NCBI GenBank assembly: GCA_964360585.1
Contig: CAYHXC010000004.1
Location: forward strand, 15,366-79,365
DNA: 64,000 nucleotides
Reading direction: 5' to 3'
Source: an uncultured Candidatus Saccharibacteria bacterium
Lineage (GTDB): Bacteria > Patescibacteriota > Minisyncoccia > UBA6257 > 2-01-FULL-56-20
Shown: positions 8,953 to 63,516 of the stretch, one piece after another
Layout: each line of letters opens with the position of its first letter
Numbering within the stretch: position 1 is the stretch's first letter
The notes under the pieces: generated by a model
What the model saw: the letters and a program-made list of their open reading frames with translations, nothing else
What the model was told of the DNA's origin: nothing
The model's database searches: none
Program-made: the position numbers and the translations under genes

Positions 8953-8957
8953 GGATT

Positions 8958-9455: not shown

Positions 9456-9588
9456 AGTCTGTGACGTTGAGATTGGGTCCTTCTTTCATATTATATACCA
9501 CTACTCGTGGTCAAGGAGGTAAGAGGGAAGTTCATGATCCGTCGTACATACAAAGGTCGCGTATTATGAACCTTTTACATTTAACTCT

Positions 9589-12638: not shown

Positions 12639-12844
12639 TGACCTGCCGTGGCGAGAACTGTTCGGTGCTACACCTCTTTGAAGAGAGAATCCCGCAGCCA
12701 TACTTGAGTATTGGGGATTGGAATGCCTTCTTGGGCAAGCGTGTCCAGAGTAGTTGGAAGCTACCGATGCTTGACCGGGTTTTCACTGACTACCAAGAGG
12801 CGCTCCTTGCAGTGTTCAAGGGGATTTATGCTGGTCGTGCTTAG
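12629..12844 (+). CDS. hypothetical ORF, possibly the frameshifted C-terminal part of the YkgJ-like gene
   Basis: overlaps the upstream ORF by 10 nt in the +1 frame; ends at the island boundary. Confidence 0.25.
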   Translation: MLVMTCRGENCSVLHLFEERIPQPYLSIGDWNAFLGKRVQSSWKLPMLDRVFTDYQEALLAVFKGIYAGRA

Positions 12845-12848
12845 CCAA

Positions 12849-15556: not shown

Positions 15557-15636
15557 GGAGCTGAGACCTCGTCAGCGAACCGGAGATCGGCGCCGACAGT
15601 TGCCGGCGACGCGGCTTTCGCCGATGATGCTCTGCT

Positions 15637-16599
15637 ATGCGCGGCCACCAAACTAACAAGGCGCTGGAAAGAGAGCGCCAAGCCATCGTGGACTACATGG
15701 CAATGTCAGCCCCCGACGAACGCGCCGAAAGCTTGGAGAAGATTAAGTCCGAACTGGTTCTCGGTCGACAGATTGACGCGTGGGACGTCCACACCGACCG
15801 CGAGCGATGGTGGGTCCTGACGGCGCCGATCAACTTGTACAATCAGAAGCAGTTTCCAAGTCTCGACGTCGCCTTCTCGTTCCATGTTGGATTGATGGCT
15901 CGCGTGATGGAGCACGGCGATCGGACAGCCCGACCCGAGCAGGCCGCACGGTTCACGCGTGCGTGGCGCACTTGGGAGGGCGCTGCCAATGCTCTCGATG
16001 AGGCGGATGCGACAGAGGAGTTTCAGGCGATCGGGATGCGGTGCCGAGAGAGTCTTCTTGCGTTCGTGCGGGAAGTGGCAAAGGTTGCGCACATCGATGG
16101 CACGCCGCCCAAGGCGGCCGACTTCGTCGGCTGGTCTGACGTGTTGGCCAACACGATTGCCCCAAGCGACGGCGCCGAACGACGGCGTGGCTATTTGAAA
16201 GCGATCGCCAAATCGACCTGGGAGCTCGTGAACTGGCTCACTCACTCTTCGAGCGCTACCCGATACGACGCCCACTTCTGCATCGAGGCGACGGAGCACG
16301 CTCTTCGCACGTGGTCTCTGGCGATCCTGCGGCACGAAGTGGGGGTTCCCGAGCGTTGCCCGAACTGTAGCTCCTATCGACTGACCTCATGTTCTCACCC
16401 AATCGGAAAGGGAGTTGTCCAGCACTTCACTTCCTGCGACGTGTGCGACTGGCAAAGCGATCCTGAACACCGGCGTGCACACGGAGGCAAGGAAGAGTCG
16501 CACCACCGCCGAAAACGCAAGCCGACGACACCGTGCGTGTTCGTCGATGTCCCATTGGTAGGCAACCCACCGCCGCCTCCGACGAGGACACGTAGGTAG
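15637..16599 (+). CDS. hypothetical protein with C-terminal Cys4 zinc ribbon
   Basis: CPNCSSYRL...CDVCDW; divergent from the nuclease operon. Confidence 0.4.
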   Translation: MRGHQTNKALERERQAIVDYMAMSAPDERAESLEKIKSELVLGRQIDAWDVHTDRERWWVLTAPINLYNQKQFPSLDVAFSFHVGLMARVMEHGDRTARPEQAARFTRAWRTWEGAANALDEADATEEFQAIGMRCRESLLAFVREVAKVAHIDGTPPKAADFVGWSDVLANTIAPSDGAERRRGYLKAIAKSTWELVNWLTHSSSATRYDAHFCIEATEHALRTWSLAILRHEVGVPERCPNCSSYRLTSCSHPIGKGVVQHFTSCDVCDWQSDPEHRRAHGGKEESHHRRKRKPTTPCVFVDVPLVGNPPPPPTRTRR

Positions 16600-16964
16600 C
16601 GCAGTCAAACATTGCTCGACAAGCTCCCCCACCGGAATGAAACCCGTTCCCATTAGTCAGCGCGGCAAGCTCGGTAACGCCGGCCGTGGATTCGGCCGCC
16701 GCGCGTACATTGCGCGGCTCCGCAAAGAGCTCAGGGACGGTTATCTCCGCGAGAATGAGACCAATCTTCAGCTTGCCAGCGAGTGGTTTCACCTCGATGA
16801 CGGGGCTGAACAAGACGTTGGACTGGGGATGAGCCCAGCATAGCCCAGGCGATCCACTCTTCCGAGCCGCAACGGTTGCCGTTTTTGCCTCGCGGCGTGC
16901 GGCCATGGCCGGGGCGGTGACGCTCAGGATTTGACGAATTGCGGTCAGTGAGTAGACTGAATTC

Positions 16965-17204
16965 ATGCCTCTCAATGTCACCAAGCAAACCGAGCAGGAG
17001 ATCGAAGAAAAGGTCCGTTCCGGCGGCTACCAGTCGGCCGATGAGCTCATCCAGGAAGGCCTGGCGCTGATCGAAGCGCGGGAAGCGTTCCGCCGAGCGG
17101 TCGCCGAAGGCCAGGCGGAGCTGGACCGCGGTGAGTACGTCACACGGGAAGAGTCGCGCCGGCGCATGGCCGAGCTCGCTGACCGTTACCGTCAGCGAGG
17201 ATGA
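16965..17204 (+). CDS. parD: ParD-family RHH antitoxin
   Basis: 79 aa, GGYQSADELIQEGLALIE motif of COG3609-type antitoxins; ATGA overlap with downstream toxin. Confidence 0.7.
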   Translation: MPLNVTKQTEQEIEEKVRSGGYQSADELIQEGLALIEAREAFRRAVAEGQAELDRGEYVTREESRRRMAELADRYRQRG

Positions 17205-17497
17205 GCCAGGCGTATCGGCTCGCCCCCCGCGCCCAGGCCGACGTCGAAGACATCTTCCGCAAAATCGCTGACGACGACTTCGAGGCTGCTCTCCGCGTTG
17301 ACCGAGAAATCGACGAAGCCTGTCTCCTGCTCTCCACGCACCCCCAGATGGGTCACACGCGAGAAGATCTCGGCATTGGCGCGACGTATCGCGTCTGGCC
17401 GATCTACTCCTACTTGATCATCTACCGCCCCGACTCTGATCCCCTCGAGATCGTCCGCGTCTGGCACGGCGCCCAGAAGAAGCCGAGCCTATTCTAG
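17201..17497 (+). CDS. parE: ParE/RelE-family toxin
   Basis: 98 aa, YRLAPRAQADVEDIF...YLIIYR...LEIVRVWHGA typical ParE. Confidence 0.75.
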   Translation: MSQAYRLAPRAQADVEDIFRKIADDDFEAALRVDREIDEACLLLSTHPQMGHTREDLGIGATYRVWPIYSYLIIYRPDSDPLEIVRVWHGAQKKPSLF

Positions 17498-17761
17498 AGC
17501 ATCGTATCATCGCGACGGCCGTCGTTTCCGAACTGCAACGGTTGCGGTTTTCGCGGGATCATCAGGGAAAATCCGGGACTTTTGGGGACTCCGCTTCTTC
17601 GGCGGCGACCCCTCTGGAACCGTTGAACCACAAGACTTTCCAGCGTTTTCTTCGCTCTCGATACCTTTGCACCCATCAACGCGGCTGCATACCAGATCGC
17701 TGGCTGGGGGTTATCGACCACACGTGGTCTCTTCTATACGCGCTCGATCATTCGAGGGATC

Positions 17762-18595
17762 TTGGTTCAATCTAATATTGTCACGCCGGAAGGTGATGGT
17801 ACCGTTATTGTCACGAGCGCGGAGGCAATGAAGGGCGCGACCAAGACGTATTACTTTGATATTTTTAGCTATAACCGCGCTGTGGATGAAAGAATTGATC
17901 ACGGTACGATCCTTAGTGCAAAGCACGTACAGGATCAGATTGTGGCACTTCTGAAAGGAAACGAGGCTCCTACTCACACGACGATTACGAGGCTCAAGCC
18001 GACACGACAATCTGTTACCCGCAAGGTAACAGCGCAGTCCCCAGTCTTACTGCATCTCTTTGACAGTTCAGGTCGCCATACTGGGCCACTGGGTGCACTG
18101 GGCGCGGAGGAGCAGATTCCCAACAGTCGATACGATCGCGGAACCGGGATCCAAACACTCTATTTCGACGATGCGGACACCTACAGCGTACAAATCGTAG
18201 GGACAGGAAGTGGGGTGGTTCACTTGACAGTCGAAGAATTGCTTGGCGAGGCTCTCGTCGAGACGGTAACGTATTCCGGCATTCCGGTGACTCCGGTATC
18301 GACCGCTCAATTTGATTTTGCGACGATGGCGGACTCCCACCGAGTCCACGTGGACGCGAACGGTGACGGCCGTGTGGACTTCGTGAGCCGACCGGATTCA
18401 GAGATGCTGCGAGGAGACCTCGATGGAGATCGAGACGTTGATCTTGTCGACCTCGGGTACGTTTTGGCGGTCCGGAATACGTCCGCGGTGGGGACGCGAG
18501 ATCCTCGGGATTTAGACAGTGACGGCAGGATAACAACCCTCGACGGGCGAAAACTGCAATTGCTTTGCACACGAGCAAGGTGTGCTGCGAACTAG
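17762..18595 (+). CDS. dockerin-domain surface protein
   Basis: C-terminal duplicated Ca-binding dockerin-type repeats DLDGDRDVDLVDLGYVLA and DLDSDGRITTLDGRKL. Confidence 0.5.
   Translation: MVQSNIVTPEGDGTVIVTSAEAMKGATKTYYFDIFSYNRAVDERIDHGTILSAKHVQDQIVALLKGNEAPTHTTITRLKPTRQSVTRKVTAQSPVLLHLFDSSGRHTGPLGALGAEEQIPNSRYDRGTGIQTLYFDDADTYSVQIVGTGSGVVHLTVEELLGEALVETVTYSGIPVTPVSTAQFDFATMADSHRVHVDANGDGRVDFVSRPDSEMLRGDLDGDRDVDLVDLGYVLAVRNTSAVGTRDPRDLDSDGRITTLDGRKLQLLCTRARCAAN
18036..18213. repeat. 178-bp exact direct repeat (copy 1; copy 2 at 18894-19071)
   Basis: identical nucleotide stretch inside two adjacent paralogous genes. Confidence 0.8.
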
Positions 18596-18613
18596 TATGC
18601 TATAATCCAATAC

Positions 18614-19300
18614 ATGAGAGTCAGTGCATCTCCAGAGAGGAGACGGACAGGCGTCGTTGTACTTGCAACGGGCTTGCTGTTCGCGGGATTGCTGATTTGG
18701 AAAGGCACCCACCTAGTTGCTGGTTGGATGAACGTGCCAAGCGAGCAAGAGTCGAGTCATTTCTCTGAGGATGTATCACAAGAGAACAGTGTGAGACCGA
18801 AGGGGCAGGAGAACATTCGACACTCTGATGCTGAAGGGCGTTACCACTACGTGATTGTTGAGAGTAGCGTGCTAGAGCGGGACAACTTATCAGAGTCCCC
18901 AGTCTTACTGCATCTCTTTGACAGTTCAGGTCGCCATACTGGGCCACTGGGTGCACTGGGCGCGGAGGAGCAGATTCCCAACAGTCGATACGATCGCGGA
19001 ACCGGGATCCAAACACTCTATTTCGACGATGCGGACACCTACAGCGTACAAATCGTAGGGACAGGAAGTGGCGAGTTTGCGGTACGGATAGGAGCCTTTG
19101 TCGTGAGTGGATCGGAAGAGAGGTTGGTCGCTCCTTTGATATTTCCGGTTCCAATAGTTAGCACAGCGGACCTACGCGCACAGATGACTATCATCGAACG
19201 CATTGATCAACGAACGAAACTTGAGATTGACGTTGATGGAGACGGAGTGGTGGATGAGAGGCTGCAAAGTCGTCCTGATGCAAACAGGGAGAACATTTGA
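18614..19300 (+). CDS. membrane-anchored paralog sharing a 59-aa identical segment with upstream gene
   Basis: N-terminal TM VVVLATGLLFAGLLIW; segment SPVLLHLFDSSGRHTGPLGALGAEEQIPNSRYDRGTGIQTLYFDDADTYSVQIVGTGSG identical to 17762..18595. Confidence 0.45.
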   Translation: MRVSASPERRRTGVVVLATGLLFAGLLIWKGTHLVAGWMNVPSEQESSHFSEDVSQENSVRPKGQENIRHSDAEGRYHYVIVESSVLERDNLSESPVLLHLFDSSGRHTGPLGALGAEEQIPNSRYDRGTGIQTLYFDDADTYSVQIVGTGSGEFAVRIGAFVVSGSEERLVAPLIFPVPIVSTADLRAQMTIIERIDQRTKLEIDVDGDGVVDERLQSRPDANRENI

Positions 19301-19302
19301 CC

Positions 19303-19902
19303 TCACTTGGTGCCGCCTTGAATTTTTCGTGCAACTCCAAGGCAAAGAAGGGCTGCCAGAAGCAGTTGTAGCGTATCCGGAAGTGGGACAGCCCTTACGG
19401 ACCCGTTCGACACGGTGGCTGTTAAGGGATCTCCGAACGAATCTCCCAGCGCATTGACCGACAGGTCCAACGAACTCTTCCCGGGCGACCCGGAGAGGAA
19501 CGTGATTGTCGCTAGCGTGAAGCTGCCCGCTTGCAGCTCGTCAAGATCGAGCGGATCGTCAAACGAAAGCTCGAACAGGTTCAGCAGTCCAGGAACACTG
19601 CCATCAAAGGATGTAAGGCTACCCAACCCGAAGAGGTCTAGCTGATCGCCGAGCAGCGAATCCCCAAAGATAACGTTCGCGAAGGTCACGACGGTGGGAT
19701 CAAAAAATATGTCGACGTCGAAGGTGCTCAAAGAAGGCGCCACAGCATCGCCGAGACCGGATATCGTCAAGTCGACGCTAACCATGGCCCCTGAGCTGAC
19801 CACTTGCACAGAAGGATTAAGCCCGAGGATTGGAGTGCCGTTGGCACGTGTGGCCAACAGGACGATGGCCACAATTGTGCGCACAAAGACGCGGTGCATC
19901 AT
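19303..19902 (-). CDS. cohesin-like secreted protein with C-terminal hydrophobic anchor
   Basis: signal peptide MHRVFVRTIVAIVLLATRA; beta-rich VSVDLTISGL...FDVDIFFDP; C-terminal LPDTLQLLLAALLCLGVARK (PEP-CTERM-like/sortase-like tail). Confidence 0.35.
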   Translation of the reverse strand: MMHRVFVRTIVAIVLLATRANGTPILGLNPSVQVVSSGAMVSVDLTISGLGDAVAPSLSTFDVDIFFDPTVVTFANVIFGDSLLGDQLDLFGLGSLTSFDGSVPGLLNLFELSFDDPLDLDELQAGSFTLATITFLSGSPGKSSLDLSVNALGDSFGDPLTATVSNGSVRAVPLPDTLQLLLAALLCLGVARKIQGGTK

Positions 19903-20069
19903 TATCCCCCCTGCCGATGCGTTACAGCCGTGTTGATTTGCTATCAATGACAGCCTCACCCACTCCAAGCATTTTTGTCAAACGATGAAATTGCGTCCGG
20001 CTCAGGCCGGATTTTCGCTTTACTTTCGTTTATCCGGTGGTATCATGAATCTCGAACCTAATCGCCCTT

Positions 20070-21083
20070 ATGTTCGGAATAACGGGGTGGTGTGGTGCTG
20101 TGGACATGGACAACAGGGGCCTCATTCTCGGGAATAATCCCGAACATAACGTTCCGGCCATCCTCGGGGGGGCCAACCAGAGCCTGCGATCACTCGCCAA
20201 GGCGTACTTCGTAACCGAAGTAGCCGGGCAGGCTAAGGGGACGATCGAGGCCAAGCACCACGACCTCACCCGGTTCATCGCGTTCTACGAGACGCTCCTG
20301 GGTCACGACGATCCGCGCGAGTGGTACCGATCCGTTACGCGCGAGTTTCTGAAGCAGCTCGCTCACGGCGAACTGTCTCAGGCGACCATCGTCCGCACCT
20401 ACGCCAGCGTCCGGCACTTCGCGCGGTGGATCCACTTCAAAGTGAGGCCCTTCCCGCTCGGCTGCCCGTGCGATGACGTGAAGCCTCCGGCCGAACCTGA
20501 ATCCGAATGGAAAGGACTCAGCCGGGCCGACGAGCTCCGACTCCTCGGAGCGGCGCAGACGCTTCGCATCCGTCCCGGTCGCGGCACGAACCAGGGACTT
20601 CGCGATCACGCCGCGATCGCCGTCTTACTCGGATCAGGACTGCGAGTCTCGGAGTTGTTGTCGCTGAAGCGAGAACAGTACACCGGCCGCGGTTTCCGGA
20701 ACGTCCTCGTGAAAGGCGGTCGCATCCGCGACTCCGTCCCAGTGCAGAAGGAAGCCCGGGACGTACTCGAACAATGGCTCGCCGCCTGCGGCACGGATCC
20801 CGGACCGATCTTCACCACGCGTAGCGGCAGGTCGCTCACGCGCCACCAGCTCTTCGAGATTCTCCAGCGTGTCGCCGACCAAGCCAACGCCCACCGGAAG
20901 GATGGCGAGCCGATCCACGTCTCCCCACACGTGTTGAGACACACCTTCCTCCGAAAGCTCGCTGAGGAGAAGGGCGTCCACTACGCTAAGGAAGCAAGCG
21001 GACACAAAAGCGACTGCTACATCTGGCGGTACGTGAAACCAAGTCAGCAGACACTCGCCGACGCGATCGACGGCTTGGCGTAG
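20070..21083 (+). CDS. tyrosine site-specific recombinase/integrase (XerD-like)
   Basis: catalytic R...HxxR...Y: RVSELLSL, HVLRHTFLRKL, GHKSDCYIWRY. Confidence 0.8.
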   Translation: MFGITGWCGAVDMDNRGLILGNNPEHNVPAILGGANQSLRSLAKAYFVTEVAGQAKGTIEAKHHDLTRFIAFYETLLGHDDPREWYRSVTREFLKQLAHGELSQATIVRTYASVRHFARWIHFKVRPFPLGCPCDDVKPPAEPESEWKGLSRADELRLLGAAQTLRIRPGRGTNQGLRDHAAIAVLLGSGLRVSELLSLKREQYTGRGFRNVLVKGGRIRDSVPVQKEARDVLEQWLAACGTDPGPIFTTRSGRSLTRHQLFEILQRVADQANAHRKDGEPIHVSPHVLRHTFLRKLAEEKGVHYAKEASGHKSDCYIWRYVKPSQQTLADAIDGLA

Positions 21084-21104
21084 CAACACCCGAATGCTAA
21101 CAAG

Positions 21105-22601
21105 TTGCCCCGCTCAGCATCATTCGCCTTGCTCGGGCAACGGCGGTCAGCAAATCGCGCTAAGTGCATTAGTTGTGAAACACCGATGCCCACCTCGGCA
21201 AAACCAAGCGGCGCAGTGGTCGCCAAATTGCGGGCTCTTGCCCTCCAAGAGGAACTGGAAAATCGCCTCAAGCGCCACCATCCCGATGACCTGATTCCAC
21301 ACTTGGCGAGGCGTCTTGCGAATGTCCTCAAGGAACCTCGCCTCATGGCATCTTGGCCACCGCATTTTCTGGCTCACGCTATTGCAGCGAACTGTGCCTT
21401 TCACCGCCCTTGCTACCGCGATGCCATCACCGATGATCGAATCCGACGTCTGGTGAATGTATACCACCAACATCCAGATCCGGTCCCGGACTATTTTCTC
21501 GAGCAGGAGCAGCGCATCGACCTGTTCTTGATCAACACTGCACGTCAGCAGTTCTACCTTCAGCACGGCGAAGCGCAACCCGACATTGCACGTGCCATAC
21601 TTCTCTTCGACGAGAGCGCGTACGGAAAGACGCTCGTCAACATCCGCGCCCACCTTGGCTTCGGCTTTTCCGACTGGATCAAGTTCCTCTTCATACTAAG
21701 CGCGGCGGTGATGAGGCGCCCTGGCATGATCATTGAGCCCAGTTATTTTCACGACATGCCCCCGAGCATTCTCCCCGCTAGCACGATTCGTGCATTGGTC
21801 AGCGCCATCTCCCAATCTGCTCCCGACGTCGCCGCGGCATATCTAAAGCTTCGCTCGACGCTTCAAGGCTTGATATTCAATCTGTACGTCCCCAGTGTGT
21901 TTCTTAAGCGGCCCCTGTTTTGCATGACGGACGGCCATTACGTGGCAGTTCATAAACTATTTCTCCGAGGACTCATCACAGGTGGGCTATTTGATCTCGC
22001 GCGGGAGCATTCGCCAGTGACGTTCGGCGAAGAATTTGGGGACGCCTTTGAACGTTATACAGGTTCCATCTTGGCCGCTATTCCTGAAGCTCGCGTCTTC
22101 ACAGAAAAAAACTTGCAGAAGTACACAGGCAAGAAGGTGTGCGATTTCGCCGTAGTTGGCGATGCGTACGTTCTGTTTGTCGAGGCGAAGGGTACGGAGT
22201 ATCGTTCCTTATTCGCTTCGGACGGTGCCCTCCGCGGTGATAATTCGACCACAAAGCTCGGCGAGGCTGTCGACCAGGTTACATCAACAGCTCGCCTGAC
22301 GAGGAGTGGCGAGTTTCAAGAGCTCTTCGGCGATACCAGCGGGAAAAAGCTAATCGCGGGCATTGTAACGTTCCGCCATATCTATTTCGCGAATGGCGAC
22401 CCCTATTGGACAGATTTTATACTTCCGCGGGTCAAAACGGTCGATGAGGTCGCACTCGGATCCCTGTTTGCTTTTAGGCCGCAGGTCTTTGATATTCGGT
22501 CCTTGGAGATGCACTTTGGAGGCTCTGCGAGGTGGCTTCCCAGTTTTTCATTTGCCGATAAGGGGAGAGAAGAACACCCTCTATGTTCCTCGGAAGATTA
22601 A
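21105..22601 (+). CDS. hypothetical 498-aa protein, possible C-terminal PD-(D/E)xK-like motif
   Basis: KKVCDFAVVGDAYVLFVEAKG resembles a D...ExK nuclease core; otherwise no motif. Confidence 0.35.
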   Translation: MPRSASFALLGQRRSANRAKCISCETPMPTSAKPSGAVVAKLRALALQEELENRLKRHHPDDLIPHLARRLANVLKEPRLMASWPPHFLAHAIAANCAFHRPCYRDAITDDRIRRLVNVYHQHPDPVPDYFLEQEQRIDLFLINTARQQFYLQHGEAQPDIARAILLFDESAYGKTLVNIRAHLGFGFSDWIKFLFILSAAVMRRPGMIIEPSYFHDMPPSILPASTIRALVSAISQSAPDVAAAYLKLRSTLQGLIFNLYVPSVFLKRPLFCMTDGHYVAVHKLFLRGLITGGLFDLAREHSPVTFGEEFGDAFERYTGSILAAIPEARVFTEKNLQKYTGKKVCDFAVVGDAYVLFVEAKGTEYRSLFASDGALRGDNSTTKLGEAVDQVTSTARLTRSGEFQELFGDTSGKKLIAGIVTFRHIYFANGDPYWTDFILPRVKTVDEVALGSLFAFRPQVFDIRSLEMHFGGSARWLPSFSFADKGREEHPLCSSED

Positions 22602-26004: not shown

Positions 26005-26061
26005 GAAATTAGAAAAAGGGGATGCGTACCAAGATTTGTTGCCTATGATATAATCAGCTTC

Positions 26062-26849
26062 ATGAAGACCTTGCGGCAGTGCGGAATGATTGTATTTCTT
26101 TTTGGAGGGATTTTATTTTTCGATTCCATAACAGCTTATGCTGCTAATCAAGTATGCCTTGATACTAATAAAATATATGCTGGTTTGACTGAGTGTCGAC
26201 GTGAGTGTGACTGGGCTCAGTGTAAAGGATATGTCGGAAATGTTCAGCCTGGGAATTCAGATCCGCGAGTAGGTTCCCAGCCTTACGGGCCCGCGACTGG
26301 GAAGTGGCAATGTCCAGATAATATTGGATCTAACTTCGCAGTTTTCTATGGAACCGCCGGTGAGTGTCGTGATAATTGCTCTGAGTCTTGCATAAATGTT
26401 TCTAAAGCACCTTCAATGTCCCCTCCTTCTTCCCCTCCGGCTACTACTGAAGATGACGATATTCCCCCTCCCCCAAGAAGAGATGATGTTCCTCCTGCAC
26501 CGCCTCAAACAGAGAATCCTTATTATCCCGAAGAATACGAAACACCCCCTTCTCGTCCTTATCCGACCTTTACCCGGCCGCCAGGTAGTGAAGCTCCTGT
26601 TACTACCGTAGGGGGTTTTTAGGAATTATTGTAGGTGTAATTGATCTTGCACAAGTAGTATTCTGGATTCTAGCGGCTGGTTTCGGTCTTTGGGGCGCCT
26701 ACCTATATCTTTTTTCTCAGGGCAACACTGAGTCGCTGACTCAAGCTAAGAAAATGATGATCTATACAGTAGTAGCGATTTTGCTCGCCATTCTGGCCTA
26801 CGGAATTCCAGCGATTGTGTCCAATTTTGTTTCCATAGGAACAATCTAG
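26062..26849 (+). pseudogene. T4SS-pilin-like (TrbC/VirB2-like) paralog interrupted by +1 frameshift at G5T5 run
   Basis: 26062..26622 encodes signal peptide + Cys-rich + Pro-rich part; 26622..26849 (other frame, no ATG) encodes conserved C-terminal VIDLAQVVFWILAAGFGLWGAYLYLF...AYGIP domain; junction at GGGGGTTTTT 26611-26620. Confidence 0.5.
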
Positions 26850-54044: not shown

Positions 54045-55331
54045 ATGCAACTCTCTCAAAGACAGATTCTTTTTATCGGCATCGTTGTTGTTGCGATCGG
54101 GGCCACTGTCTTTTTTATCTTTTCCAGCTTGAAATCAGGATCGAGTGGCGGGATTGATGATCTGCAGACTCAAAAAAGCAAAAAGCTTTCTGTTTGGGGC
54201 ATTGATGATCCGAGGGCCTTTGCTACGATAAAGAAAAATTTTGAGGGGATAAATAAAACAGTTGTCGTGAACTACTCCCAGATTGACGAGAGTATCATCC
54301 AGGATCAGCTCGTGAACGCTCTTGCTTTGAACCAGGGACCCGATGTGGTCATGATAAAAAATAGGACGCTCGCGGCCAAGAAAAGTTTATTTTTACCGGC
54401 GCCGGCCGCCAAGATGAGTTTTTCAAAACTGCAAAGTCTTTTTCCGACTGTTGTGGAGCAAGACTTTACGGACAAGACGCGACAGGTATACGCCCTGCCG
54501 CTTTCTATTGATACCCTCGCTCTGGTCTACAATAAAGATTTTTTCGATCAGGCGAGAATCATCACGCCGCCCAAAACCTGGAGCGATCTAATCGACATCA
54601 TCCCTAATCTTGTCGAGAAAGGGGATGGAGGTCGGATCGAACGGGCGGCAATCGGACTTGGCGGTTCAACGAAGTCAGTCACGAATGCCGGTGATATTTT
54701 GGCGCTTCTCTACATGCAGAATGGTGTGAACTTGTCTCTCGGGAAACTGGAGCGGAGTACAGTTGGACGGCGAGTCTTCGATTTCTATCTCCAGTTTTCA
54801 AATCCGCGATCGCTCTCCTACACCTGGAGCGATCTCCAGTTGAACGATATTGATAGTTTGGCCACTTTGCGATCAGCGATGGCGCTCATGTACGCCCGAC
54901 AGCTCGAGAATTTGAAAGTCCAAAGTCCGTATCTGCACTATGGCATTGCCGCTATGCCTCAGTTCGGCTCGGCAGTTGACTATGCTGACTACTGGGGTTT
55001 GGCCGTGACACGCGACAGTAAAAACGCGGCGATCGCCTGGGATTTTGTGACGTATGCGACGACGGTAAGTGAGAATGCCTTATCGTATATGAAAGCAACA
55101 AAGCAGCCGCCGGCCTTGCGGAATTTGCTCCAGAGTAACTATGACAGTCCGGAGTTTGGTGTTTTTGCCAAGCAGGCTTTGACGGCGCGCTCCTGGGCGG
55201 TTTTAAATGACGATGAGAGTCGAATAATTTTTTCAGATATGATAAGTTCCTATCTCACTGGCCAGATGGATCAGGATGCCGCTCTCGGTCGCGCCGAAAA
55301 TCTTTTGTCCAGAATTATTGTGAAAAAATAA
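54045..55331 (+). CDS. extracellular solute-binding protein (family 1-like), membrane anchored
   Basis: N-terminal TM, periplasmic-binding-protein type sequence; no adjacent permease. Confidence 0.55.
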   Translation: MQLSQRQILFIGIVVVAIGATVFFIFSSLKSGSSGGIDDLQTQKSKKLSVWGIDDPRAFATIKKNFEGINKTVVVNYSQIDESIIQDQLVNALALNQGPDVVMIKNRTLAAKKSLFLPAPAAKMSFSKLQSLFPTVVEQDFTDKTRQVYALPLSIDTLALVYNKDFFDQARIITPPKTWSDLIDIIPNLVEKGDGGRIERAAIGLGGSTKSVTNAGDILALLYMQNGVNLSLGKLERSTVGRRVFDFYLQFSNPRSLSYTWSDLQLNDIDSLATLRSAMALMYARQLENLKVQSPYLHYGIAAMPQFGSAVDYADYWGLAVTRDSKNAAIAWDFVTYATTVSENALSYMKATKQPPALRNLLQSNYDSPEFGVFAKQALTARSWAVLNDDESRIIFSDMISSYLTGQMDQDAALGRAENLLSRIIVKK

Positions 55332-55335
55332 GGAG

Positions 55336-55830
55336 ATGGTAAAAAAAATTCTTATCTTTTTTGGTTTACTGCTTCTCGTCGGAGTACCCTCGCTTCTTTT
55401 AGCGCAAAGTTCGGTGCCGACAGTTCAAAATGCCTGTACCGTCGAAACGCCAGGTTTTCCGTACTGGGGAACAGGTCCTTCGCTTCTCCCCTGCGGAACG
55501 AATGGCGTAAACTGTCTCGAGTGCGGTTTGTGCGGCTTGCTGATGTTGGGGCAAAGGATCATCTACCTGATACTTTCCTTCCTGATTTTTATTATTGCGC
55601 CACTTCGGTTTATCTGGGGCGGCTTCCAGATTTTTATTTCCCGCGGCTCGTCAGAGATGGTGTCGCACGGCAAGAAGATAATTTACCAGACAGCGACCGC
55701 GCTCGTGATCGCCCTTCTGGCATTCGTGCTCATCCAGACGTTTTTGTGGCTTTTGGGAGGCGTGAACTTAACACAAGATCAGCGTCTTGGCTGGCCCAAC
55801 ATCAACTGTACGCGTAATCTCCGGCCATGA
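55336..55830 (+). CDS. T4SS-pilin-like (TrbC/VirB2-like) small membrane protein, paralog 1
   Basis: signal peptide, Cys-rich segment, two C-terminal TM helices with conserved A..K...Y motif. Confidence 0.5.
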   Translation: MVKKILIFFGLLLLVGVPSLLLAQSSVPTVQNACTVETPGFPYWGTGPSLLPCGTNGVNCLECGLCGLLMLGQRIIYLILSFLIFIIAPLRFIWGGFQIFISRGSSEMVSHGKKIIYQTATALVIALLAFVLIQTFLWLLGGVNLTQDQRLGWPNINCTRNLRP

Positions 55831-56297
55831 TTTCTTCTCTCATATCAGGTAAAATGAAAAAGATGAAGACAATAGTCGCCATCGCTCTCTTACTGTTATT
55901 CCTCACGCTACCACTTCCTTCTTTTGCTCAAGGAACTCCAAGTCTGGGAACAGGCACTCAAAGTCCTGGGACAGGTACTCAAACCCCCGGTATTCCCACT
56001 CCCAGTCCCGCCTTACCACTTCCCAATCTTCTCAACTGCCCCCCTCCTACCGGCCCAAATACTCCGCCGTGCTTTCTCCAGATTTTCCAGGATGTAATCG
56101 GCCGACTGCTCCTTGTTATCTATCCGCTTCTGGCCGGGATGGTATTCTATGGCGGCATGCAGATGATGTTCGCGCGGGGAAATACGGAAAAGTATAAGGC
56201 TGGTCTCAAAACCATCCAGTATGCGGTCATTGGATTTGTCGTTATAGTGCTCTCTCAAGGGCTTGGCCTTATCATAAAAAGTATCCTTGGTCTCTAG
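55827..56297 (+). CDS. T4SS-pilin-like protein, paralog 2
   Basis: signal peptide, Pro/Thr-rich linker, conserved C-terminal two-helix domain. Confidence 0.55.
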   Translation: MISSLISGKMKKMKTIVAIALLLLFLTLPLPSFAQGTPSLGTGTQSPGTGTQTPGIPTPSPALPLPNLLNCPPPTGPNTPPCFLQIFQDVIGRLLLVIYPLLAGMVFYGGMQMMFARGNTEKYKAGLKTIQYAVIGFVVIVLSQGLGLIIKSILGL

Positions 56298-56377
56298 GTT
56301 GCTATTTTGCCCGTCCCTATGGAGTGTGCTACAATAATCCAACATGGAAAGGTCGGTACATTAGTTACTGTAATGTT

Positions 56378-56761
56378 ATGAAGAATCATAAACTAATTTC
56401 CGGAGCTCTCACGTTAGTTACAGTTCTCGTTTCCCCAATGGCTGCGTTTGCTCTGCCGGAGGTGGAACCCATTGTGACCATCAATCCTGTTCCACCGCCG
56501 GAAAGTGATGCAGGTATCACAGATCTTAACGTTGTTCTCCAACTCCTTGTTAATCTCCTGGGCTATGTTCAGGCTTTGTTCTGGATTGCCGCGGTTTTCT
56601 TTGGTCTCTATGCTGCTTTTCTCTACCTCACCGCTCAAGGCGATGGTGAGAAGGTTTCAAAGGCCAACCATATGCTTATCTATGTTGTTGTGGCGGTAGT
56701 AGTGGCTGTTATTGCCTACTCCATTCCGCAGTTCGTCACTACGACGATCACCCAGCCGTAA
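56378..56761 (+). CDS. T4SS-pilin-like protein, paralog 3
   Basis: LLGYVQALFWIAAVFFGLYAAFLYLTAQGD...AYSIP; start verified at MKNHK. Confidence 0.6.
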   Translation: MKNHKLISGALTLVTVLVSPMAAFALPEVEPIVTINPVPPPESDAGITDLNVVLQLLVNLLGYVQALFWIAAVFFGLYAAFLYLTAQGDGEKVSKANHMLIYVVVAVVVAVIAYSIPQFVTTTITQP

Positions 56762-56782
56762 GTTTTTAGATACGTTCTTAAA

Positions 56783-56808
56783 AAGCCCCTTCGCGGGGCT
56801 TTTTTGGT
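56783..56808 (+). terminator. rho-independent terminator
   Basis: AGCCCCTTCGCGGGGCTTTTTT. Confidence 0.8.
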
Positions 56809-56924
56809 TGAGGCCCCCTCTTAAAAATCCTTTCTTTTTTCACGAAAGAGATTCTTGAGAGAGGTTCTTAAGGGGTGGGGAAAAGTCTTGTTCACGAGAA
56901 AACTTCGCGGTATAATCGCTAGTA

Positions 56925-57302
56925 ATGCAGATGCGCCAATTTCTCCTCGGAAGCCTCTTAATCCTTGCGACTTTGTTTTCTGTCATTCCTGTAGTCTTGG
57001 CCGTGCCCCCTGCCACACCTGGTACTGTTCCACCCTGCGTCGGTTGCCCTTTAACGAACGTGAGTCAGGTTGTGAGTTTGATAACTGGCATCGTAAATCA
57101 GATGCAGATTGTGTTCTGGACGGTGGCGGCTGGCTCGGGACTTTATGCCGCCTTTCTTTTTATTCGCGGCGGCAGTAATACCGAATCCTTGAAGCAGGCC
57201 AAGAATCAGATCCTCTACACCGTGATCGCGGTTATTTTAGGAGTGCTGGCTTATGGTATTCCGGGAATTGTGACTGATTTTCTGAAAAACGTACGCGGAT
57301 GA
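56925..57302 (+). CDS. T4SS-pilin-like protein, paralog 4
   Basis: VNQMQIVFWTVAAGSGLYAAFLFIRGG...AYGIPGIV. Confidence 0.6.
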   Translation: MQMRQFLLGSLLILATLFSVIPVVLAVPPATPGTVPPCVGCPLTNVSQVVSLITGIVNQMQIVFWTVAAGSGLYAAFLFIRGGSNTESLKQAKNQILYTVIAVILGVLAYGIPGIVTDFLKNVRG

Positions 57303-57652
57303 TTATACATTTCTTGAGTTCCATCGTAAGTAGGTTAACCGAGAAGGCTTATGCGTATCCGCGCTTCACCGGTCCGCCGGCAGATGCCGGAGGGGCGCCC
57401 ATCAAAACCGTAAACGAGGCTCTCGGCATCATTGTCGCGGTGATTGACTTGGCGCAAGTGGTGTTCTGGATTTTGGCCGCCGGTTTTGGTCTTTATGCCG
57501 CCTATCTCTATCTTTTCGCGCGGGGGGATAAAGAGTCAGTCACCACTGCTCGGCGGATGTTGGTGTATACCGCCGTCTCAATCTTAGTTGCCTTGATCGC
57601 CTACGGTATACCGTCAATTATCGTAAATTTCGTAAATCTTGGAACACCATGA
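57299..57652 (+). CDS. T4SS-pilin-like protein, paralog 5
   Basis: VIDLAQVVFWILAAGFGLYAAYLYLFARGD...AYGIPSII. Confidence 0.6.
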   Translation: MIIHFLSSIVSRLTEKAYAYPRFTGPPADAGGAPIKTVNEALGIIVAVIDLAQVVFWILAAGFGLYAAYLYLFARGDKESVTTARRMLVYTAVSILVALIAYGIPSIIVNFVNLGTP

Positions 57653-58161
57653 TCAAGGGCTACCAGTTTCGCGTGATTTTTTTCCTCGCCACTCTTCTCG
57701 GTGTGTTGCTCATTTTCTCGCCAGCGTTTGCGGCACAGTGGGAATGTCGGTCAACCGGTCTTTCATTCTCAGACGCGGGTTTCTGTCGCTCGCAGTGCGG
57801 CGGCGTGAGCTGTGTTTGTTCCGGGTCGGCTTCGGAGTGCGGTGGCGGTAATAATCCTTTTGCGACGGATCAAACACCGTATCCCCACACCGTTGTTCCG
57901 CCGAATCCCGGTCCGGTGAATGATGTTTTCACGATGCTTGGTGTTTTAACTTCAGTGATCGAGTTGGCCCAAATTATATTTTGGATTCTGACTGTTGGCT
58001 TCGGTCTCTATGGTTCCTATCTCTATCTTTTCGCGGCGGGCAATGCGGAGAAGGCAATACAAGCGAGAAAGGTATTTCTCTACGCCGTAATTGCTGGCGT
58101 GCTGGCTATACTTTCCTACAGTATTCCGGGAATCGTCGAAAGTTTTGTTTTAGGATACTAA
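57649..58161 (+). CDS. T4SS-pilin-like protein, paralog 6 (with Cys-rich N-domain)
   Basis: signal peptide, CRSTG...CGGVSCVCSG Cys-rich, then VIELAQIIFWILTVGFGLYGSYLYLFAAGN. Confidence 0.6.
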   Translation: MIKGYQFRVIFFLATLLGVLLIFSPAFAAQWECRSTGLSFSDAGFCRSQCGGVSCVCSGSASECGGGNNPFATDQTPYPHTVVPPNPGPVNDVFTMLGVLTSVIELAQIIFWILTVGFGLYGSYLYLFAAGNAEKAIQARKVFLYAVIAGVLAILSYSIPGIVESFVLGY

Positions 58162-58166
58162 ATCAT

Positions 58167-58676
58167 ATGAAAACATTTAAAAAAATTAGCCTCGTCGCAT
58201 TTTTGCTCGTTGTGGTGGTTTTCGGATTTTTCCCGCATTTTGCCGATGCCCGTCGAGATGAGAGTAACATTTGTTTTGGAGTCGGGGATGTTGTTATCGA
58301 CCTAAATCTCCCTTGTCTTTTTGGTGGTAAGGTATGCCTCGATGCGGATCTCGCAAACGAATGTCAGCGCCTTGGTGGACGGTGGAGCGCGGTCATGCCC
58401 CAGTATATTGGTCCCGGCGATACGAATGGGCCAGTTGAGGATGTTGAAACTTTCTTAGATCTTCTGGTGTGGTTTATTAAATTCTTCCAGATTGTCTTCT
58501 GGGTTTTGACCGTTGGCTTTGGCCTCTACGCCGCCTATCTCTATCTTTTTGCGGCGGGGAGTTCGGAAAAAGCGGCCCAGGCGCGTCGGGTTTTAGGATA
58601 CACGGTTATCGCGGCGGTCGTCTCGGTTATCGCTTACTCTATTCCGAGCGTCATTGATAGTTTCTTAGCCGGGTAG
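58167..58676 (+). CDS. T4SS-pilin-like protein, paralog 7
   Basis: signal peptide, Cys-containing domain, IKFFQIVFWVLTVGFGLYAAYLYLFAAGS...AYSIP. Confidence 0.6.
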   Translation: MKTFKKISLVAFLLVVVVFGFFPHFADARRDESNICFGVGDVVIDLNLPCLFGGKVCLDADLANECQRLGGRWSAVMPQYIGPGDTNGPVEDVETFLDLLVWFIKFFQIVFWVLTVGFGLYAAYLYLFAAGSSEKAAQARRVLGYTVIAAVVSVIAYSIPSVIDSFLAG

Positions 58677-58740: not shown

Positions 58741-58870
58741 ATTAAGCAGGTTCATTTTCCCAAAAGAAAAAGGCCCTTGAGATGTCTCGCGGGCCTTTTG
58801 GATTTTCGCCTTGCAAATTCTTCAGCGAAACGGTCGGCGTAGTTACCGTTCCACTTATTCACTCACCCGC

Positions 58871-60847: not shown

Positions 60848-60931
60848 GCGGGTGTAGCCGAACTGGTATAGGCGCATGGCTTAGAACCATGTGGGAGCAA
60901 TCCCGTGGAGGTTCGAGTCCTCCCATCCGCA
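60848..60931 (+). tRNA. tRNA-Leu (anticodon UAG), class II with long variable arm
   Basis: acceptor GCGGGTG/CATCCGC, anticodon stem CATGG/CCATG with loop CUUAGAA, 16-nt variable arm, T arm GGAGG-TTCGAGT-CCTCC. Confidence 0.8.
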
Positions 60932-60938
60932 CCTTTGT

Positions 60939-61979
60939 ATGAAAAAACACGTCCACCCATTCCGCGTTATTGTTGCGGTTTCCTGTATTGGTTCAGGCAT
61001 CGTCGCATCGCTTCTGGCCTTAATCGGACCGATTGCTCAAGAATCGAATTTTTTCTCGTATTACATCAATTTGGCCGTAGGTCCGATCAGTGATGCCTTT
61101 TCCTTCCTCTTTGTTTTTTGTTTTGCGGCCATTTTTTCTTTCCTCGCCTTTTCTCTTTTTGCCAATGCTTTTTATCACAAGCGTGATCCGCATGAATTTT
61201 TTTCCTGGGATTTTTTAAAAAAGAATATTCGGTTGCTCGGTCGGGGATTGGGAGAGCTTATGCTCGAGGCCGGGCCGGTCATACTCACCTTTGTTTTCGT
61301 GAGTCTCGCGATGGCTTCTATCAATCCGGTGAACGCGACACACCTTATTGACGACCGTGTTGTCGAATGGGATCGAGCCCTTTTAAACAGCTATCCTTTC
61401 ATCTCATTCACAAACATTTCCTGGCCAGGCTGGTTTATCAGGATCGTTGCATTCTCGTTTATGGATCTGCCGGTTTTTATCATTGCGTTTTCGCTGTATG
61501 TCTTTGCGTTCCAGCGGAAGATTTTTAGAGAAATGGCTGCGGTTTTCTGTTTCTCGCTCGTTCTCATGCTTTTTTTGTGGCAGATTTTTCCGGTCTTGAG
61601 TCCGCACGATCGCTATCTTGATAACGTCTACAATCTGCCGAACTCGCCGAGCATGAACGAAGCGTTAAAAAAGTACGAACCGCAACCGCTTATTGAGAAG
61701 TTCTTGAGCGAGATGCGGGAGAGGAAAAATCAAAGTCTTGGCGGAACGATGCCGACTTCAACCTTGCCGAGCGCGCACGTGGCCTGGGCGACACTTCTTG
61801 TCTATTACGTTTGGCGAGTTAAAAAGCAATTACTGCTCCTCTTCTTTCCGATCGCTTTTTTATCGACAATCGGGACGTTTCTTTTTGCTCAACATTATTT
61901 TGTTGATGTGCCCGCCGGAATTGCGGTAATGATGTTTGCGATCTACCTTGTGCGTTTCACGAATAGGAAACATAAATAA
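60939..61979 (+). CDS. PAP2-superfamily membrane phosphatase
   Basis: PSAH and HYFVDVPAG motifs (PAP2 PSGH / SRx5Hx3D-like); start placed after the tRNA at ATG 60939. Confidence 0.5.
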   Translation: MKKHVHPFRVIVAVSCIGSGIVASLLALIGPIAQESNFFSYYINLAVGPISDAFSFLFVFCFAAIFSFLAFSLFANAFYHKRDPHEFFSWDFLKKNIRLLGRGLGELMLEAGPVILTFVFVSLAMASINPVNATHLIDDRVVEWDRALLNSYPFISFTNISWPGWFIRIVAFSFMDLPVFIIAFSLYVFAFQRKIFREMAAVFCFSLVLMLFLWQIFPVLSPHDRYLDNVYNLPNSPSMNEALKKYEPQPLIEKFLSEMRERKNQSLGGTMPTSTLPSAHVAWATLLVYYVWRVKKQLLLLFFPIAFLSTIGTFLFAQHYFVDVPAGIAVMMFAIYLVRFTNRKHK

Positions 61980-62032
61980 CTGTATATTGTTGATCCCGGC
62001 TCTACTTCTCGTTTTCGGTTATAAGTTTTTAG

Positions 62033-62104
62033 TGCCGGACCCCAGAGTCGAACTGGGCACGCCTGCCTCTTCAGGGCAGCGCTCTACCGATGAGCTAGCC
62101 CGGC
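62033..62104 (-). tRNA. tRNA-Phe (anticodon GAA)
   Basis: acceptor GCCGGGC/GTCCGGC (one G-U), D stem GCTC/GAGC, anticodon loop CUGAAGA, T arm CCCAG-TTCGACT-CTGGG. Confidence 0.8.
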
Positions 62105-62219
62105 AATACTACATAATGTAATTGAATTTAGTTTTATATTCAATACAGGAATGATTTGACAGTTTTATAATAAGTGTTTTACGTTTAGTTCAGCCTAGCG
62201 CAGTCGTGGAGGAAAACTC

Positions 62220-62465
62220 ATGGATACAAAAAATACGATTCCTGTTCCACCAGAGCAGAAACCAGAAGAAGATTGGCCATCCCACATCATGGAGTTGCGG
62301 AGTCAGCTGGGTATGACCCAGGAGGAGTTCGCGCATACTCTCGGAATCACGGTTGGCACGGTGAGCCGTTGGGAAAATCGATGGTTCCGCCCGAGCAAGT
62401 TGGCTCGAGCCACCATTCTGGAATTTGCCCGACGCCACGGTATCCCCATCGGTCAGGCCAAGTAG
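62220..62465 (+). CDS. XRE-family helix-turn-helix transcriptional regulator
   Basis: HTH LRSQLGMTQEEFAHTLGITVGTVSRWE; GC-rich; between tRNAs. Confidence 0.6.
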   Translation: MDTKNTIPVPPEQKPEEDWPSHIMELRSQLGMTQEEFAHTLGITVGTVSRWENRWFRPSKLARATILEFARRHGIPIGQAK

Positions 62466-62500
62466 ATTTCTACTTGGCTTTTTTATTTGTGTCCCCATTA

Positions 62501-62668
62501 GGAAGGCTCAGCATTCCTAGCTCGACCCCTAAAAAGTAAAACCGAACATGGATGCTCGGTTTTGTTCTCTCGGCATTCCCACCAGGAAGGCTGCGCATTC
62601 CTGGCCCAACTCCTCAAAAACAAAACCGAACATACATGCTCGGTTTTGCTCTCTCGGCGTTCCCACCA
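62501..62668. repeat. two tandem ~84-bp units each ending in a tRNA 3'-end-like segment (TTCCCACCAGG)
   Basis: units 62501-62584 and 62585-62668 ~85% identical; each contains hairpin AAAACCGAACAT..ATGCTCGGTTTT and CCAGGAAGGCT..GCATTCCTGG; third unit continues into a truncated tRNA 3' half (T arm CCAGGTTCGATTCCTGG on minus strand). Confidence 0.6.
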
Positions 62669-62795
62669 GGAATCGAACCTGGGTCTACTCCTTACCTGCC
62701 CGCCATTGCCTGCGCCCTCGGTAGGAAGGACAATCATTCCTACCTTGCCATCTCAAAAGAAAAACGAAGCGTGCCGCTTGATTTCTCTCTCTCGG

Positions 62796-62867
62796 TGCCC
62801 TCGGTAGGAATCGAACCTACGTCTAGAGCTTAGAAGGCTCCTATTCTTTCCACTGAACTACGAGGGC
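62796..62867 (-). tRNA. tRNA-Arg (anticodon UCU)
   Basis: acceptor GCCCTCG/CGAGGGC, anticodon stem GGAGC/GCTCT loop CUUCUAA, T arm GTAGG-TTCGATT-CCTAC. Confidence 0.8.
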
Positions 62868-63089
62868 AATTCTGGCAGGCGGGGAAGGGAGTCGTTTTAT
62901 CCATTAAACTATGGGGACTAAATGGATTTCGATTGATTCTATCGCAGAAATCAGATAACTTAAAGGGGCGTTCGGATGGTTATTTCGAAAACACAGATAT
63001 AATTCTGACTGAATTATTCCTATGCTCGGACCGTCGTCCTCCGCAGTGTTTTCTCAATAAATCCTCACTAGGGTTTTACGTAAGGTAGG

Positions 63090-63160
63090 CGGGGTGTAGT
63101 ATACCGGTAGTACGCCTGCTTTGGGAGCAGGTAGACCGAGTTCAATTCTCGGCACCCCGA
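63090..63160 (+). tRNA. tRNA-Pro (anticodon UGG), C1-G72 type
   Basis: acceptor CGGGGTG/CACCCCG, anticodon stem CCTGC/GCAGG loop UUUGGGA, T arm CCGAG-TTCAATT-CTCGG. Confidence 0.75.
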
Positions 63161-63402
63161 CTGAACGAAGTGAAGGAGGGGATGAGCGCGCAAACTGCTT
63201 TGCGCGCGTCCGGAATCGAAGCCCGCAGAGATGTGATTCGCAGTAGCGGATCACCACGAGGGGCTAGCCTAATGCCGAGTCGAGTGACTGACGACCTGCC
63301 GGCAGGCAGGCAGGGAAGAGGATAGGAGGCGATTCCCGGCTGTGCCCTTCCGTAGTTTTAACAAAGGAGGGCAGTCCGACAAGTAGTGATAAGGAGAGGG
63401 TT

Positions 63403-63474
63403 GGACGGTTAGCTCAGTGGTAGAGCATCTGCTTTACACGCAGAGGGTCGCGGGTTCAAATCCTGCACCGTCCA
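63403..63474 (+). tRNA. tRNA-Val (anticodon UAC)
   Basis: acceptor GGACGGT/ACCGTCC, D stem GCTC/GAGC, anticodon loop UUUACAC, T arm GCGGG-TTCAAAT-CCTGC. Confidence 0.8.
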
Positions 63475-63516
63475 CAGATTAGAACACTTGAATATTTCGT
63501 ATGTTATAATCTTTCT

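Follow-up and report, generated by a model that had tools for sequence, protein, structure and literature searches.

A tandem array of seven divergent VirB2-like pilin genes, and a frameshifted eighth copy, in a genome of the Patescibacteria

The DNA analysed here, a 64-kb stretch of contig CAYHXC010000004.1 from an uncultured Candidatus Saccharibacteria bacterium (hereafter the window, meaning the whole 64,000 nt), carries a tandem array of seven small, divergent pilin-like genes, p1 to p7, and a more distant, frameshifted eighth copy, p8. Membership of these proteins in PF18895, a family of type IV secretion system (T4SS) pilins, is secure, although only p2 passes its gathering score. Taken as a whole, they are best explained, in our judgement and with moderate confidence, as eight VirB2-like pilins of a Patescibacteria T4SS, which display their N-terminal modules on the surface and have non-redundant roles, with p8 inactivated. 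VirB2-like pilin arrays are already known in Patescibacteria from work of 2018, 2023 and 2025, and the locus is a further example.

A preliminary description of this DNA had reported seven consecutive genes for proteins of 117–170 aa, and all seven open reading frames (ORFs) are indeed present on the + strand between 55336 and 58676. The most divergent copy is p1 (55336–55830, 164 aa), with a signal peptide and six cysteines, one of them in the C-terminal tail. It overlaps by 4 nt (ATGA) with p2 (55827–56297, 156 aa), whose N-region is rich in proline, threonine and glycine and contains two cysteines. The third gene, p3 (56378–56761), encodes 127 aa from its ATG or 145 aa from an upstream GTG, and is devoid of cysteine. 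A CxxC motif lies within the N-region of p4 (56925–57302, 125 aa). Next come p5 (57299–57652, 117 aa), again without cysteine and the sole copy without an N-terminal hydrophobic signal segment, p6 (57649–58161, 170 aa), in which a six-cysteine N-terminal module is followed by a proline-rich linker, and p7 (58167–58676, 169 aa), with a four-cysteine N-terminal module retained in all of its orthologues. From p1 to p7 the successive junctions measure −4, 80, 163, −4, −4 and 5 nt; the spacing previously given as often 0–4 nt or overlapping is true of four of these six.

The copies are united by a conserved C-terminal two-helix domain, of which about 75 residues align across all eight with the consensus proposed beforehand. 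Identity within this core ranges from 14 to 68%, p1 and p2 being outliers and p3–p8 a tighter group. We built a hidden Markov model (HMM) of the domain and searched with it all stop-to-stop ORFs of the whole window in the six reading frames. Exactly eight matches were obtained, with E values from 3e-27 (p1) to 5e-38 (1.5e-37 for p5). Since the next-best stretch reached only E 1.2, there are exactly eight copies, and their similarity goes well past chance; the domain HMM ties all eight to p2 at E ≤ 3e-27. The conserved hairpin of all paralogues consists of two hydrophobic helices with a short G-x-x-E loop between them. Hydropathy analysis detected two C-terminal segments in every copy but p4, in which only the second reaches the threshold. 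The AlphaFold2 model of p5 has a predicted local distance difference test score (pLDDT) of 82, and its helices, at residues 38–72 and 78–114, score around 90 or above.

The N-terminal parts are far less uniform. Each gene had been said to encode a signal peptide, which holds for all copies (a hydrophobic stretch at the N-terminus that bears an A-x-A-like site) except p5. Most of the p5 signal peptide has been lost, though it is kept by the orthologues in two related loci, L007 and L008, and p5 may be inserted without Sec-type cleavage, or may be impaired. Beyond the signal peptide, the N-regions contain 0, 2, 4, 6 or 8 cysteines or are proline-rich; a variable Cys- or Pro-rich segment had been attributed to every copy, and p3 and p5 carry no cysteine.

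The Pfam comparison supports the family proposed at the outset: over the two-helix domain, PF18895 (T4SS_pilin) ranks first or close to first among the matches of all seven array proteins, although arrays of such genes had already been described as a class. With 34.7 bits, p2 passes the gathering score of PF18895 (26.6 bits), and the E values of the other proteins are 2.5e-4 (p1), 7e-4 (p3), 4e-4 (p4), 0.029 (p5), 1.4e-3 (p6) and 5.8e-4 (p7). We represented the wider family by an 83-member alignment of relatives, 66 of which match PF18895 (E ≤ 1e-3) and 21 of which match the TrbC/VirB2 family PF04956 (best E 3.3e-8). Over the pilin domain, PF04956 matched none of the seven array proteins, and its sole match in the window was the signal-peptide region of p2 (E 0.0021). 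The kinship of the window proteins to PF04956 is therefore indirect, because only their relatives match that family over the domain. Most of the relatives (70/83, best E 1.1e-12) are also hit by NF045849, the NCBIfam model for the pilin-like conjugal transfer protein Mbov_0395, which is encoded by Mycoplasma conjugative elements. The window proteins p2 (22.2 bits), p3 (27.9 bits, E 1.4e-6), p4 (27.1 bits) and p8 (15.8 bits) all score under its 40-bit curated cut-off, and they are homologous to NF045849 but outside that equivalog.

The family is large: a profile search finds 35,761 cluster representatives with E ≤ 1e-3, of which 1,949 remain when the limit is set to 1e-10. Distant members occur in two loci, L019 and L021, as 5–6 pilin genes beside VirB4-like (DUF87/P-loop_TraG/AAA_10), PrgI and TrbL_3/VirB6-like genes, and it is this adjacency that ties the domain family directly to T4SS loci. 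The domain profile matched no solved pilin, and nothing relevant, among the PDB sequences, and a Foldseek search of the PDB returned no significant match. The best PDB fold match was a conjugative pilin; the hairpin fold is common to many unrelated proteins.

Two side observations concern how such genes are counted and built. The gene calls of one ENA assembly (L001:8365–9113, window ~56013–56761) skip p2 and p3, in whose place ORFs of 110 aa on the opposite strand and 107 aa on the + strand were called, and the precomputed PF18895 match on that assembly concerns p2 only. Because automated calls missed these two genes, pipeline-derived pilin counts per array are likely too low. Moreover, many top-scoring family members are polypilins, that is, single chains of 2–8 tandem pilin domains with short linkers and no internal signal peptides, as in P0005 (606 aa), P0016 (820 aa) and P0013 (333 aa). 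Such proteins restrict the possible packing of subunits.

The array lies immediately downstream of a gene for a membrane-anchored, orphan solute-binding protein (SBP) of the SBP_bac_1 family (54045–55331, + strand, 428 aa, Pfam E 5e-23), whose nearest solved relatives are sugar/maltose-binding proteins. Its stop codon stands 4 nt ahead of the p1 start, and gyrA lies upstream of it. We compared this arrangement with that of seven related loci. L007 (Hainich H41-bin141_1, seven copies) and L008 (chromosome OZ246418.1, complete at 808 kb and carrying the label 'Ca. Saccharibacteria', eight copies) came from a genome scan with an alignment of four closer copies, and L014 (five copies), L015 (three domains in two genes), L017 (seven), L018 (seven) and L020 (three) were added through look-ups of further homologues. 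GyrA identity to the window ranges from 88% down to 56% among them. The block S1 – MBL-fold protein – small ORF – gyrA – SBP – pilin genes is common to all seven, except that a methyltransferase gene lies between gyrA and the SBP gene in L015 and that L020 has no separate small ORF; the flank downstream of the array varies between loci. In the window and in 7/7 related loci the SBP gene directly precedes the pilin genes, often with translational coupling, at a distance of −4 to about 25 nt (144 nt in L015). No ABC permease or ATPase gene was found near the SBP gene. In L015, the syntenic SBP-linked position is occupied by a two-domain pilin gene (L015:8981–9889, 302 aa).

The proteins of the block do not evolve at the same pace. 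In L007, L008, L017 and L018, identity to the window is 87–88% for GyrA and 80–87% for S1, as against 59–64% for the SBP and 45–70% for the pilins, so that the surface proteins diverge much faster than the housekeeping ones. Within the pilins, we compared the N-region with the domain, a measure chosen because, with GyrA at 87% aa identity, synonymous sites are likely saturated. Between orthologues, the N-regions are 35–62% identical (aligned positions, with indels) versus 53–85% for the domain. For example, the N-region of p6 shares 40–55% with its orthologues, and its domain 70–72%. Domain identities to orthologues are 68–69% for p1 (L7_1, L8_1), 53–62% for p2, 78–86% for p3, which is the best-conserved copy, and 56–74% for p4. 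Cysteine counts are even and mostly unchanged between orthologues (e.g., 4/4/4 for p7 across three genomes).

A neighbour-joining tree of the domains gave one-to-one positional orthologues for p1, p2, p3, p4, p6 and p7, with a mixed clade for p5 and p8. The array is therefore old and stable. Since every paralogue persists as an orthologue of its own, it is probable that the copies are not redundant in their roles and serve as different subunits or decorations of one structure. The paralogues are 52–65% identical in DNA, which rules out recent duplication or gene conversion. We found no gene-conversion tracts, silent or recombination cassettes, or exact or inverted repeats in the array sequence, and shufflon-like inversion is ruled out by the lack of inverted repeats. 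Moreover, L014 keeps the order p1-like, p2-like, p3-like and has extra copies that resemble p3, and in L020 gene 1 is p1-like, gene 3 is p3-like and gene 2 is ambiguous. Because this order is kept in L014, and partly in L020, SBP-p1-p2-p3 looks like an old core and p4–p8 like a later expansion.

The sequence between the genes suggests how the array may be transcribed. A putative intrinsic terminator, in which a GC stem is flanked by an A-tract and a T-tract (56780–56805, + strand, −15.6 kcal/mol when folded), lies between p3 and p4, and a hairpin with a T-tract is found at the equivalent position in L007, L008 and L017, where the stem sequences differ. Just downstream, a TATAAT −10 box (56911–56916, + strand) read from the sequence stands 8 nt upstream of the p4 ATG, and boxes similar to TATAAT precede the p4 orthologues in the same three loci. 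This suggests a putative promoter giving a leaderless or near-leaderless transcript for p4–p7. Given that a structurally conserved terminator sits after p3, the array probably consists of two units, SBP-p1-p2-p3 and p4–p7. A further terminator-like hairpin (58767–58806, −19.5 kcal/mol, T-runs after the stem) lies between the convergent p7 (+) and a 195-aa gene (−), with comparable hairpins after the last pilin gene in L007 and L008. A promoter-like TTGCCC-17-TACAAT sequence (56307–56335, + strand) precedes p3, from a scan no richer in such sites than shuffled sequence. This promoter and terminator consensus scan gave counts not above those of shuffled sequence, and it overlooked the terminator after p3. 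Rfam and tRNA scans detected tRNAs only, none of them inside the array.

The frameshifted eighth copy, said to share the architecture of the others, was borne out by both the ORF reading and the domain HMM. It occupies 26062–26849 (+ strand), with a TATAAT box upstream (26049–26054, + strand). Its N-part (26062–26622, 186 aa) comprises a signal peptide, an eight-cysteine domain and a proline-rich linker and ends at a TAG, and its pilin domain (26619–26849) is in the −1 frame. The eight-cysteine domain (26062–26400; VCLDTNKIY...GTAGEC) had no relatives in a metagenome scan; it is highly similar to the N-domain of the protein P0002. In that protein an in-frame fusion joins it to a pilin domain of much greater divergence, and this recurrence on a quite different scaffold suggests that N-terminal head modules are exchanged between pilins.

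We consider p8 most likely to be a recently inactivated copy with a one-base insertion. A single added base in a G5T5 run is a common mutation. An alternative is that p8 is expressed by programmed −1 frameshifting, yielding a secreted Cys-rich protein in the 0 frame and a pilin-anchored form in the −1 frame. The frame changes precisely at a canonical −1 slippery heptamer of the form X XXY YYZ with a stop immediately after it (G GGT TTT TAG, 26613–26622; G GGU UUU UAG in the RNA). The C-part lacks a separate start codon, and its 76 codons are open, keep all family motifs and are 68% identical to p5. Moreover, the 788 nt of p8 are identical in two other independent assemblies. All of these assemblies come from one aquifer well, however, and thus sample one population. 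RNA folding downstream of the shift site revealed no structure beyond that of shuffled sequences (z = 0.09), and none of the relatives found has the frameshift: the p8-like gene inside the L008 array, between the p4 and p5 orthologues, is intact, and P0002, P0003 and P0004 are likewise uninterrupted. Programmed frameshifting thus appears quite improbable to us. If it were true, p8 would provide free and pilin-anchored forms of a Cys-rich adhesin-like domain.

In the explanation that we favour, Sec would insert the proteins such that both termini face outward and the loop is cytoplasmic, and this membrane pool would supply a T4SS encoded elsewhere, which would assemble them into a pilus-like filament or conduit. 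By analogy with F and T pili, the loop would then face the lumen and the N-terminus the outside, so that the disulphide- or proline-rich modules could be shown on the surface and make contact with the host bacterium. A T4SS-dependent filament is plausible, and host attachment, like the filament, is an inference. Several observations weigh against this explanation. Six of the seven array proteins (p1 and p3–p7) match PF18895 in the right region but at 14.9–21.5 bits, below the gathering score. Pfam scans of essentially all window ORFs of at least 110 aa revealed no VirB4, VirB6, PrgI, VirD4 or TrsD in the 64 kb; the array stands at least 55 kb away from any T4SS core gene. No Patescibacteria T4SS pilus has been seen, and a 2025 review calls such a pilus a possibility (PMC12857230). 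A role embedded in the membrane would likewise suit both the conserved coupling to the SBP gene and the occurrence of polypilins with several domains. The related loci resemble the window in that no T4SS core genes were found within 10 kb of the arrays of L007, L008, L014, L015, L017, L018 and L020. In an alternative explanation, the proteins are two-helix integral membrane proteins rather than filament subunits, acting in the membrane with the co-transcribed SBP, for example as an oligomeric channel or receptor for the uptake of host-derived molecules, independently of any T4SS pilus. SBP and array stay together in eight loci, down to 56% GyrA identity, and an insertion has occurred between gyrA and the SBP gene but never between the SBP gene and the pilins. 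The window lacks an ABC permease or ATPase as well as T4SS genes according to the same Pfam scans, single chains with 3–8 pilin domains would suit a membrane oligomer, and no pilus has been observed (PMC12857230). Such a role is nevertheless hard to reconcile with the homology of the domain to T4SS pilin families and with the presence of other family members in VirB4 loci; the best PDB fold match, for a hairpin common to many unrelated proteins, is also a conjugative pilin. All SBP-linked loci, moreover, share one ancestral gyrA context, and their linkage may be inherited synteny. We regard a membrane channel or receptor as fairly unlikely. Rather unlikely, in our opinion, is also a reading in which the conserved, translationally coupled SBP-p1-p2-p3 unit, expanded here by p4–p8, is a distinct module detached from virB4 whose orphan SBP and fixed, non-redundant pilins form a heteromeric surface conduit that captures host-derived molecules. 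Were this so, the essential function of the T4SS and its pilins in Patescibacteria would become concretely approachable.

Another explanation treats the copies as variants of a single major pilin, interchangeable and kept for antigenic or host-range variation as proposed for the VirB2 paralogues of Bartonella and Anaplasma. The N-terminal regions are highly variable, two separately terminated units would permit differential expression, and host-range versatility has been suggested as a reason for the copies (PMC12102498). Interchangeable variants are difficult to square with the one-to-one positional orthologues of p1–p4, p6 and p7, with a p1-p2-p3 order kept down to 62% GyrA identity and with paralogues that are old and free of conversion tracts, silent cassettes and invertible repeats. 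The differences between copies also extend beyond the exposed regions into the conserved domain itself, and we therefore find this explanation unlikely. As for type IV pili (T4P), the preliminary description placed a PilB/GspE ATPase at the start of the window. The gene is there (11–1744, Pfam T2SSE, E 4e-114) and belongs to type IV pili, which are another machine. It is conceivable in principle that this PilB serves the array proteins as T4P pilins. PilB lies 53 kb from the array, however, the class III prepilin motif (G-F/M-T-L-x-E) occurs in none of the eight copies, and the Pfam matches are to T4SS and not to T4P pilins. With a C-terminal helical hairpin in place of an N-terminal hydrophobic helix and a globular head, the proteins were ruled out as T4P pilins, and such a role is extremely improbable.

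The array proteins have identical copies on contigs from Hainich groundwater well H51 (0.1-µm fraction), and p5 is labelled 'Patescibacteria group bacterium' at NCBI (locus tag AAB691_02205). The source is a Saccharimonadia-like metagenome-assembled genome of the Patescibacteria from Hainich groundwater. The window starts near the replication origin, since dnaA and dnaN (L009:65–2170) lie only ~6.7 kb upstream of its position 1; from dnaA to the pilin array the distance is ~62 kb. Other features of the surroundings are given here as side observations. Downstream of the array, 60848–63475 holds five tRNA genes (Leu-tag, Phe-gaa, Arg-tct, Pro-tgg and Val-tac), and a tyrosine recombinase gene (L001:17518–18468) follows this cluster just past the window end. 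A GC-rich island at ~12800–22600 (0.52–0.60 versus about 0.45–0.48 outside), whose ORFs have no Pfam match except for a tyrosine recombinase (20070–21083), is probably an integrated mobile element. Finally, a DUF5667 protein (7774–8952, −), an extracytoplasmic function (ECF) sigma factor (8958–9455, −) and a DUF5666 protein (9589–10521, +) are clustered at 7774–10521 and may form a sigma/anti-sigma surface-signalling module.

The T4SS of Patescibacteria and its pilin arrays are essential in the one species tested, and their role is acknowledged to be an open question. To our knowledge, the T4SS of Patescibacteria is unique among monoderm T4SS in having pilins. The present locus leaves this overall picture unchanged and supplies testable details. 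It places arrays in a second genomic setting, where they are gyrA-linked and coupled to an SBP gene, and it adds a probable two-operon layout as well as evidence for copies that are stable, non-redundant orthologues rather than variable cassettes; our literature search did not cover positional orthology or an internal terminator. It further supplies a pilin gene whose frame is interrupted at G GGT TTT TAG, in all likelihood through mutation. The links to Mycoplasma NF045849 bear on whether the pilins come from an MPF-FATA ancestor or were co-opted later, and the 70/83 matches bear on the published statement that MPF-FATA systems have no pilins. A literature search for such pilin-like Mycoplasma proteins yielded the 2025 review (PMC12857230) and nothing else.

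Pilin-like paralogue arrays had been called characteristic of bacteria of the candidate phyla radiation (CPR), in keeping with the patescibacterial source of this DNA and with the published arrays (10.1101/258137; PMC10633639; PMC12102498). McLean et al. (2018; 10.1101/258137) described arrays of 4–6 small VirB2-related signal-peptide proteins in Saccharibacteria, Wang et al. (2023; PMC10633639) reported that the pilin series within the T4SS cluster of Southlakia epibionticum is essential, and Quinonero-Coronel et al. (2025; PMC12102498) catalogued 441 arrays of 2–11 genes with a mean identity of 25%, a pilin gene being near virB4 in 1,135 of 1,948 assemblies holding both. An array has been defined as at least two pilin genes, in tandem or with one non-pilin gene between them, in Patescibacteria; here there are seven in tandem. 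Like the Southlakia epibionticum ML1 genes, those known in TM7x as an 'array of small signal-peptide proteins' and those catalogued in PMC12102498, the window genes encode tandem, divergent, structurally similar PF18895 proteins with signal peptides. The phylum is also shared with that catalogue, the relatives being labelled Saccharibacteria, and a copy number of 7–8 falls inside the 2–11 range. Unlike the published arrays, this one has no virB4 cluster nearby, follows an orphan SBP gene downstream of gyrA, is split into two units by a terminator, carries larger N-modules (up to about 150 aa in p8) and has one dispersed, frameshifted member. When the main text of PMC12102498 was searched by term, neither gyrA nor a solute- or substrate-binding protein nor fused pilin domains turned up in it. 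Between copies, the domain is up to 68% identical here, whereas the whole-protein maximum published there is 54%.

Outside the phylum, the closest parallels are partial. Nearly the whole 80-residue Mbov_0395 model (NF045849) is matched by p2, p3, p4, p8 and 70/83 relatives, and both groups of pilins come from wall-less or monoderm lineages with T4SS of the MPF-FATA type; however, the Mbov_0395 protein is encoded by a single gene in a mobile element, whereas the window has a chromosomal array scoring 16–28 bits against the 40-bit cut-off. With the archaeal conjugative (Ced/Ted) pilins known from Aeropyrum pernix and Pyrobaculum calidifontis (PDB 8dfu, 8dft), sequence identity is 8%, and the hairpin fold is one that many unrelated proteins have. 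TrbC/VirB2 and TraA conjugative pilins (PF04956) of Gram-negative T4SS, as in the T-pilus and F-pilus, resemble the window proteins in their signal peptide, two hydrophobic helices, short polar loop and ~70-aa domain; the latter differ in their long variable N-terminal extensions and in belonging to a monoderm host without outer membrane, and there is no evidence in them for cyclisation or acetylation. Lastly, Bartonella and Anaplasma phagocytophilum likewise have several divergent tandem VirB2 copies in a host-dependent bacterium. Those copies are located inside or next to the virB operon and have been interpreted as antigenic variants, whereas the pilins of the window are stable positional orthologues.

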